36,019 nt of DNA from a virus (IMGVR_UViG_2537561980_000006); one strand, 5' to 3'; counted from the stretch's first letter, positions 30,545-33,500 are shown. A program made the numbers and translations. Notes: a model not told the origin generated them from the sequence alone.

Positions 30545-33500
30545 ATGGGTAAAGGCAGCAGTAAGGGGCATACCCCGCGCGAAGCGAAGGACAACCTGAA
30601 GTCCACGCAGTTGCTGAGTGTGATTGATGCCATCAGCGAAGGTCCGGTTGAAGGTCCGGTGGATGGATTAAAAAGCGTGCTGCTGAACAGTACGCCGGTG
30701 CTGGACAGCGAGGGGAATACCAATATCTCCGGCGTCACGGTGGTGTTCCGGGCAGGCGAGCAGGAGCAGACACCGCCGGAGGGATTTGAATCCTCCGGCT
30801 CCGAGACGGTGCTGGTACGGAAGTGAAATATGACACGCCGATCACCCGCACCATCACGTCGGCAAACATTGACCGTCTGCGCTTTACCTTCGGTGTGCAG
30901 GCACTGGTGGAAACCACCTCAAAGGGGGACAGGAATCCATCGGAAGTCCGCCTGCTGGTTCAGATACAACGTAACGGTGGCTGGGTGACGGAAAAAGACA
31001 TCACCATTAAGGGCAAAACCACCTCGCAGTATCTGGCCTCGGTGGTGGTGGATAACCTGCCGCCGCGCCCGTTTAATATCCGGATGCGCAGGATGACGCC
31101 GGACAGCACCACAGACCAGCTGCAGAACAAAACGCTCTGGTCGTCATACACCGAAATCATCGATGTGAAACAGTGCTACCCGAATACGGCACTGGTCGGC
31201 GTGCAGGTGGATTCGGAGCAGTTCGGCAGCCAGCAGGTGAGCCGTAATTATCATCTGCGCGGGCGTATTCTGCAGGTGCCGTCGAACTATAACCCGCAGA
31301 CGCGGCAATACAGCGGTATCTGGGACGGAACGTTTAAGCCAGCATACAGCAACAACATGGCCTGGTGTCTGTGGGATATGCTGACCCATCCACGCTACGG
31401 CATGGGGAAACGTCTTGGTGCGGCAGATGTGGACAAATGGGCGCTGTACGTTATCGGCCAGTACTGCGACCAGTTGGTACCGAATGGTTTTGGCGGCACG
31501 GAGCCGCGCATCACCTGTAATGCCTGGCTGACCACACAGCGTAAGGCGTGGGATGTTCTCAGCGATTTCTGCTCGGCGATGCGCTGTATGCCGGTATGGA
31601 ACGGGCAGACGCTGACGTTCGTGCAGGACCGACCGTCGGATAAGGTGTGGACCTATAACCGCAGTAATGTGGTGATGCCGGATGATGGCGCGCCGTTCCG
31701 CTACAGCTTCAGCGCCCTGAAGGACCGCCATAATGCCGTTGAGGTGAACTGGATTGACCCGGATAACGGCTGGGAGACGGCGACAGAGCTTGTGGAGGAT
31801 ACGCAGGCCATTGCCCGTTACGGTCGTAACGTCACGAAGATGGATGCCTTTGGCTGTACCAGCCGGGGGCAGGCACACCGCGCCGGGCTGTGGCTGATTA
31901 AAACGGAGCTGCTGGAGACGCAGACCGTGGATTTCAGCGTGGGTGCCGAAGGGCTTCGCCATGTACCGGGCGATGTCATTGAAATCTGTGATGATGACTA
32001 TGCGGGGATCAGCATCGGCGGGCGTGTGCTGGCGGTGAACAGCCAGACCCGGACGCTGACGCTCGACCGTGAAATCACGCTGCCATCCTCCGGCACCACG
32101 CTGATAAGCCTGGTTGACGGAAGTGGCAATCCGGTCAGCGTGGAGGTCCAGTCCGTCACCGACGGCGTGAAGGTGAAAGTGAGCCGGGTTCCTGACGGCG
32201 TTGCCGGATACAGCGTGTGGGGGCTGAAGCTGCCGACGCTGCGCCAGCGCCTGTTCCGCTGTGTGAGTATCCGTGAGAACGACGACGGCACGTATGCCAT
32301 CACTGCCGTGCAGCATGTACCGGAGAAAGAAGCCATCGTGGATAACGGGGCGCACTTTGACGGTGACCAGAGCGGCACGGTGAATGGTGTCACGCCGCCA
32401 GCAGTGCAGCATCTGACCGCCGAAGTCACCGCAGACAGCGGGGAATATCAGGTGCTGGCGCGATGGGACACGCCGAAGGTGGTGAAGGGCGTGAGCTTTA
32501 TGCTTCGCCTGACCGTGGCAGCGGATGACGGCAGTGAGCGGCTGGTCAGCACGGCCAGGACGACGGAAACCACATACCGCTTCACGCAACTGGCGCTGGG
32601 GAACTACAGGCTGACGGTCCGGGCGGTAAATGCGTGGGGACAGCAGGGCGATCCGGCGTCGGTATCGTTCCGGATCGCCGCACCGGCAGCACCGTCGCGG
32701 ATTGAGCTGACGCCGGGCTATTTTCAGATAACCGCAACGCCGCATCTTGCGGTTTATGATCCGACGGTACAGTTTGAGTTCTGGTTCTCGGAAAAGCGGA
32801 TTACCGATATCAGGCAGGTTGAAACCACAGCCCGCTATCTTGGCACGGGGCTGTACTGGATAGCCGCCAGTATCAATATCAAACCGGGTCGTGATTATTA
32901 CTTTTATATCCGCAGTGTGAACACCGTCGGCAAATCGGCATTCGTGGAGGCTGTTGGTCGGGCGAGCGATGATGCGGAAGGTTACCTGGATTTTTTCAAA
33001 GGCCAGATAACCGAATCCCATCTCGGCAAGGAGCTGCTGGAAAAAGTCGAGCTGACGGAGGATAACGCCAGCAAACTGGAGGAGTTTTCGAAAGAGTGGA
33101 AGGACGCCAGTGATAAGTGGAATGCCATGTGGGGCGTCAAAATTGAGCAGACCAAAGACGGCAAACATTATGTCGCGGGTATTGGCCTCAGCATGGAGGA
33201 CACAGAGGAAGGCAAACTGAGCCAGTTTCTGGTTGCCGCTAACCGTATCGCGTTTATTGACCCGGCAAACGGGAATGAAACGCCGATGTTTGTGGCGCAG
33301 GGCAACCAGATATTCATGAACGACGTGTTCCTGAAACGCCTGACGGCTCCCACCATTACCAGCGGTGGAAATCCGCCGGCATTTTCCCTGACACCAGACG
33401 GAAAGCTGACCGCTAAAAATGCGGATATCAGCGGTAATGTGAATGCAAATTCAGGGACGCTCAACAATGTCACGATTAACGAGAACTGTCGGGTTCTGGG

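Follow-up and report, generated by a model that had tools for sequence, protein, structure and literature searches.

The host-specificity gene J of a lambdoid prophage is broken in the deposited genome of E. coli EPECa12, and the locus raises the question of whether the break belongs to the phage or to the assembly. The window, by which we mean the whole stretch of DNA analysed here, corresponds over its full length to contig AKNH01000025.1 (36,019 bp) of the draft assembly GCA_000268125.1; from position 1277 to the contig end it is occupied by a lambdoid prophage whose head genes are of the HK97 type and whose tail module is of the lambda type. The first-pass annotation had proposed that J is interrupted by the loss of one G from a G run, and that this loss is either a real defect or an assembly error. 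Intact relatives and lambda carry GGG at the site, which bears out the former point, and the choice was rightly framed, with the evidence leaning to an artefact.

In lambda, gpJ is the tail-tip attachment and host-specificity protein. The tail module of the window and of its annotated relatives runs in the order tape measure, M, L, K, I, J, lom and side tail fibre, so J occupies the same place between I and lom as in lambda, with the Pfam families Lambda_tail_I upstream and Ail_Lom downstream. Once the G is restored, J comprises 1131 codons and its protein is 89.8% identical overall to lambda gpJ (NP_040600.1), with 94–100% identity per 100-residue block across the first ~900 residues but only 28–45% over the last ~230, a stretch that includes the receptor-binding region. 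The restored protein aligns from one end to the other with chain 8iyk_J of solved lambda gpJ (residues 1–1130, 2327 bits), one of several cryo-EM structures of lambda gpJ (8IYK, 8IYL, 8K35, 8XCG, 8XCI), and shows the same Pfam domain series. The domain series, the full-length similarity and the position in the tail module together identify the product as a gpJ/TipJ protein. Lambda gpJ is unsplit, whereas the window J as deposited is split after codon 90. Additionally, the receptor-binding end (window 33200–33939, the last ~230 codons) matches PDB 9WCA ('A8 gpJ 713') with 772 bits and the lambda C-terminal fragment 8XCJ with 704 bits; since this end is divergent and scores higher against 9WCA, the receptor specificity probably differs from that of lambda.

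Read directly from the window, CTGGTACGGAAGTGA occupies positions 30812–30826. The features that define the break are as follows.

30545–30826, plus strand: 5' piece of J, ATG start, 93 sense codons and a premature TGA
30790–30826, plus strand: stretch of 37 nt with both frames open, the sole place where a ribosome could shift to full-length J
30814–30815, plus strand: site of the missing G, GG here and GGG in intact alleles
30823–33939, plus strand: 3' piece of J, 1038 codons open in the -1 frame up to the normal J end
30824–30826, plus strand: premature TGA, three codons past the frameshift
30870, plus strand: T where the intact gpJ of relatives has C, the second of the two differences; synonymous (ATT/ATC, Ile)

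Translation of 30545–30826 confirms that the first 93 codons end at a TGA within 30812–30826, as had been read at first pass. The product begins MGKGSS; its residues 1–90 are those of J, while residues 91–93 (VRK) are out of frame. It is deposited as GenBank EIQ65460.1 of E. coli EPECa12, and Pfam finds no domain in it. The GGG of intact J straddles two codons, taking its first G from the end of codon 90 (CTG, Leu) and the other two from the start of codon 91 (GGT, Gly). In the window, J homology restarts at 30814 in the -1 frame (GGT ACG GAA GTG, encoding GTEV), and the mechanical start of the 1038-codon ORF is a GTG that overlaps the TGA (GTGA, 30823–30826). The rest of J had been assigned to the +1 frame, which does not hold, because the start coordinates modulo 3 are 2 for the 5' ORF and 1 for the 3' ORF and the latter lies in the -1 frame. 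The lesion had also been placed at 30812–30815; this interval covers it, but the shortened run itself is the GG at 30814–30815, and the interval also takes in the preceding CT. The lambda sequence cited at first pass was accurate, as lambda J (NC_001416) has CTGGGTACG at J nt 268–276, as do all close relatives, and in the proposed alignment to lambda J the 30 nt on each side match the window except for one G.

Pfam detects FNIII-A_GpJ, Phage-tail_3, Ig_J, Ig_J_second, Phage_Tail_Tip and Ig_GpJ_C in the 3' ORF, with E-values of 1e-34 to 1e-43, and the break coincides with the N-terminal edge of FNIII-A_GpJ (profile positions 12–125 against ORF2 residues 2–114). The deposited sequence therefore presents gpJ as 93 + 1038 codons and not as the single uninterrupted ORF of ~1130 codons. 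Since a 1038-codon open frame abuts a 93-codon ORF and each is ~97–98% identical to lambda J, a chance pattern is excluded.

Could the two-ORF J be functional as it stands? A programmed -1 frameshift would restore the full-length protein, and re-initiation at the GTGA would yield a two-piece J; the overlap of the ORF1 TGA with a GTG in the J frame and the position of the break near a domain boundary both speak for such an arrangement. However, there is no X XXY YYZ heptamer in 30790–30826 or elsewhere in ORF1, no Shine-Dalgarno sequence lies within 20 nt upstream of the GTG at 30823, and the split is not conserved, with 0 cases against 6,251 intact junctions in complete genomes. The programmed -1 frameshift of lambda G/GT offers a direct comparison, as it is likewise a two-ORF, -1-frame arrangement in the same tail module. 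Its G/T copy in the window reads GTT AAA AAA AAG TAG at 24570–24584, with the T frame open in -1 to 24886. This true programmed frameshift of the prophage has the classical A AAA AAG heptamer and is conserved (A8 in 16 of 19 fetched loci), whereas the J split has neither property. Programmed frameshifting and coupled re-initiation were rejected on the missing heptamer, the missing Shine-Dalgarno sequence and the lack of conservation, and we regard a functional two-ORF J as extremely improbable. As a separate observation, the G/T A run is A7 in ETEC1747, ETEC4085 and the draft AFEB01000037 (L029), which is probably a homopolymer error; RefSeq marks the G/T chaperone gene as incomplete in ETEC1747 and ETEC4085.

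To place the lesion among known J genes, we used a 40-mer spanning the deletion junction, each flank of which is too short to seed a megablast match on the intact allele. The 40-mer had 0 matches in 5,426 complete E. coli genomes and 0 matches in 50,697 phage records, while the G-restored 41-mer, serving as positive control, was found at 6,251 places in 3,767 complete E. coli genomes. An exact-pattern scan for the junction likewise returned none in the GTDB species representatives, IMG/VR and the JGI metagenomes, and all 13 of the other fetched loci with identical 20-nt flanks carry GGG. At the protein level, an exact look-up of the 93-aa product in 153 billion gene positions recovered just two sequences, the source contig and L007, an ENA metagenome scaffold of 581 bp. 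The latter lacks the same G, on a different J allele with 18 differences from the window over 581 positions. Apart from the lesion, the L007 allele corresponds to intact genes of finished genomes: 41 records reach >=99% identity, and against the six best listed of these the identity is 99.8%, with 581 bases facing 582. Because its allele otherwise matches intact finished genes, the L007 lesion is an independent, equally private event.

A candidate third carrier (P0001/L010, ...TVLVR...) was rejected as a chimeric metagenome scaffold in which J is fused to unrelated high-GC DNA at CTCGTACGG. Specifically, ENA ERZ28616770 scaffold_49235 contains a lambda-type I and the first ~270 nt of J, and then, near position 860, passes into unrelated high-GC DNA. 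Short scaffolds with the same ENA naming pattern, L007 included, should be treated with caution.

The recurrence in L007 raises the possibility that the GGG at codons 90/91 repeatedly silences J as a mutational hotspot or a phase-variable switch, given that the same 1-nt deletion stands on two J alleles 18/581 positions apart and that one of them is otherwise identical to intact finished-genome genes. The numbers argue strongly in the other direction. A 3-nt run is far below the length of a contingency locus, and the short form is absent from finished genomes (0 carriers against 6,251 finished copies), phages, GTDB representatives, IMG/VR and JGI metagenomes. One chance coincidence is expected among 153 billion gene positions, deletions in the GGG at codons 69–70 are far more frequent, with at least 16 protein clusters affected, and the second carrier is a 581-bp scaffold, a like-named counterpart of which is chimeric at this very spot. 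A hotspot or phase variation was rejected on frequency and is very unlikely. We give equally little credence to the wider proposal that codons 90/91 are a recurrent deletion site and that the split J works either as a two-piece tail tip (the 93-aa piece plus a GTG-re-initiated one) or as a reversible off-switch of infectivity.

Other truncated J N-termini are common in public assemblies, where they are mostly singletons within their assemblies. Like that of the window, these fragments result from 1-nt deletions in short G runs, and many of them are 93 aa long; only L007, however, has the ...TVLVRK* junction of the window, and almost all others derive from codons 69–70. This commoner class lacks one nucleotide of a different GGG (window 30749–30754, CGG GCA) and reads ...VVFRQVSRSR...CWVRK*, ending at the same TGA and hence also at 93 aa. 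It comprises at least 16 protein clusters (proteins P0082–P0113), many of them on ~5-Mb contigs. We therefore rejected the view that most public 93-aa J fragments carry the lesion of the window, as their deletion lies at codons 69–70 and only the TGA is shared. The codon 69–70 deletion, which is far commoner than that at the codon 90/91 site, represents either a recurrent assembly error or a real hotspot.

Next, we compared the contig with its closest relatives. The prophage part (1277 onward) shares 99.9% identity with a prophage of ETEC1747, a porcine ETEC strain, and 99.7% with that of ETEC4085, and further close copies occur in 14EC029 and CV839-06. The prophages of ETEC1747, ETEC4085 and 14EC029 adjoin tRNA-Ser/mtfA, and in all three J is an unbroken gene of 3396 nt annotated as gpJ (WP_000515626.1); CV839-06 carries the same intact gene. 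Relative to the gpJ of CV839-06, 14EC029 and ETEC1747, the window J differs by exactly the missing G and the T/C at 30870, and the G-restored protein is identical to WP_000515626.1, since the sole remaining difference is synonymous.

The sister prophages differ from the window copy in carrying a dicB-exonuclease-integrase arm where the latter has IS10, and their integrase region has no counterpart on the window contig. In three complete sister genomes (L004, L005, L008) the tyrosine integrase beside tRNA-Ser is annotated as frameshifted and only a remnant of the tail fibre assembly gene is left; prophages of this family may already have lost the ability to excise. Elsewhere in the window, a cluster of four tRNA genes lies at 12656–12965, downstream of the Q antiterminator, with a CAT anticodon, Lys-TTT, Thr-TGT and Gly-TCC; ARAGORN assigns the CAT tRNA to Met, and the RefSeq annotation of relatives to tRNA-Ile.

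The deletion in J is private to the deposited sequence, and the same contig has other private single-base deletions. Against three relatives, the prophage part shows five private differences, namely three 1-nt deletions (8598, 13251 and 30814) and two SNPs, and a further deletion lies in the IS10 part. Those outside J are located as follows.

329–330, plus strand: private deletion in IS10, GC here and GAC in IS10/ISVsa5 references; not in a homopolymer; breaks the transposase frame
8599–8604, plus strand: private A6 run, A7 in four relatives and A8 in one; frameshifts a 298-aa ORF that is intact in relatives
13252–13258, plus strand: private T7 run, T8 in three relatives; intergenic, past a GC-rich stem

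The deletion at 329–330 splits the otherwise invariant IS10 transposase into ORFs 15–335 and 383–901. The tally for the whole contig is thus four 1-nt deletions, 0 insertions and two SNPs in 36 kb, so that private single-base indels exceed substitutions. During divergence within E. coli, substitutions generally outnumber indels; given this known excess, the tally reads like a spectrum of errors. Two further candidates were set aside. The private SNP at 9405 is synonymous and was rejected as a lineage marker, and L029, an older draft with a related prophage, was rejected as an error calibrator, as it has few private indels and its split genes are mostly the submitter's annotation.

The left end of the contig also deserves a description of its own. 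Window 1–1276 is IS10/ISVsa5 in an odd arrangement: positions 1–913 are the 3' part of IS10 on the plus strand, with the terminal ...GGGGATCTCTCAG, and positions 915–1276 are the first ~365 nt of IS10, inverted, whose outside end abuts prophage DNA. The same contiguous arrangement occurs in the K. pneumoniae plasmid CP132692 (L036).

Independent evidence on the reads comes from the Logan assembly of SRR063724, which derives from the same strain. One of its contigs, 3,700 bp long, matches window 5309–9008 exactly over its whole length, which indicates that EPECa12 reads were assembled independently. The A6 run at 8599–8604 is reproduced there; it is therefore present in the reads and may be real. 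Despite this exact match, a search of the Logan contigs for the 93-aa stub, the annotated fragment of 910 aa and the 1038-aa ORF2 recovered none of the three, and no record was found for ORF2 with an M start. The absence of these products is suggestive only and carries little weight, because prophages share the 5' end of J (a median of 3 places per genome) and k-mer contigs may break in such a repeat and hide the GG allele. We sought the J region of the Logan assembly through its neighbours M (1,481 index blocks) and the tape measure (184), both of which are too common, and the sample was absent among the matches listed. The Logan-derived fragments P0016 and P0021 were rejected as EPECa12 J, since they come from other runs.

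The 298-aa hypothetical gene hit by the A6 run (window 7929–8825; WP_000058713.1 in ETEC1747 and 14EC029) is divided into three ORFs by two run-length changes. Its other break is a T9 run at 8105–8113, which is T8 in most relatives and T9 in ETEC4085. Both run states, T9 and A6, are reproduced in the SRR063724 Logan assembly, and the A8 state of the 8599–8604 run comes from one other Logan assembly. The protein contains GHG...GQCYAG, which by eye we take to be reminiscent of clan CD cysteine peptidases; Pfam gave no match on a 176-aa fragment of the gene.

These observations have to be weighed for a genuine recent knockout, in which replication slippage removed one G in the EPECa12 lineage and left a 93-aa stub with no full-length J. 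Such a prophage would lack a functional tail tip unless another source provided J in trans or recombination with a further lambdoid prophage restored the gene. The deletion does stand in the deposited consensus, prophage genes in a lysogen are under relaxed selection, and truncated J N-termini are frequent in public data. Other decay is visible as well: IS10 sits in the early region of the window copy, the 298-aa ORF is broken twice with both breaks reproduced from reads, and the annotation marks the integrase of three sister prophages as frameshifted. The identical deletion on the L007 allele further shows that the same event can arise independently. Yet the lesion is confined to one draft assembly, against 6,251 copies that are intact, and no sister genome shares it. 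The 3.1 kb downstream show no added decay; ORF2 is fully open and its protein equals that of the intact homologue, in contrast to a decaying pseudogene. Moreover, natural mutation does not readily account for a contig with more private single-base deletions than SNPs, and the assembly built from reads of the same strain lacks the truncated product. We consider a real knockout possible but doubtful.

The missing G is instead probably an artefact of assembly or sequencing. It is private to one assembly whose closest relatives are intact, and the only other carrier is a different allele on a 581-bp scaffold. J shows no secondary decay, the missing G and one synonymous change being all that separates it from its relatives, the window spans a complete draft-assembly contig whose private indels exceed its substitutions, and the Logan assembly of the same strain, which matches 5309–9008 exactly, yields no truncated J products. 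Some points weigh against an artefact. Three consecutive Gs make a short run for a homopolymer miscall of the classical kind; the sequencing platform of the EPECa12 draft was not found in the literature searched; and long runs may be naturally variable and so a poor guide to the error rate, as the 8599–8604 run is A8 elsewhere. The best explanation is that a single-base deletion went uncorrected in the 2012 draft assembly of EPECa12, so that the real J would be intact and would encode the WP_000515626.1 protein, with GGG presumably present in the reads or in the true genome. Both an artefact and a recent null mutation are ordinary explanations.

Should the deletion prove to be an artefact, a single intact J should replace EIQ65460.1 and the downstream fragment in the annotation, and calls of prophage completeness for EPECa12 should not score J as broken. 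More generally, short-run J frameshifts are frequent in public assemblies and, without read support, are not to be taken as biology. Beyond annotation hygiene the significance is very small.

J is essential to tail-tip assembly and adsorption in lambda. If the deletion is real, the prophage alone would accordingly be without full-length J and would form no functional tails. The first-pass statement that it cannot make infectious tails extends lambda biology to this prophage, and is softened by the IS10 in the early region and by the integrase frameshifts of the sisters; other resident lambdoid prophages could supply J. With a real deletion, infectious particles would need J in trans or recombination, and the loss would represent a routine step in prophage decay.
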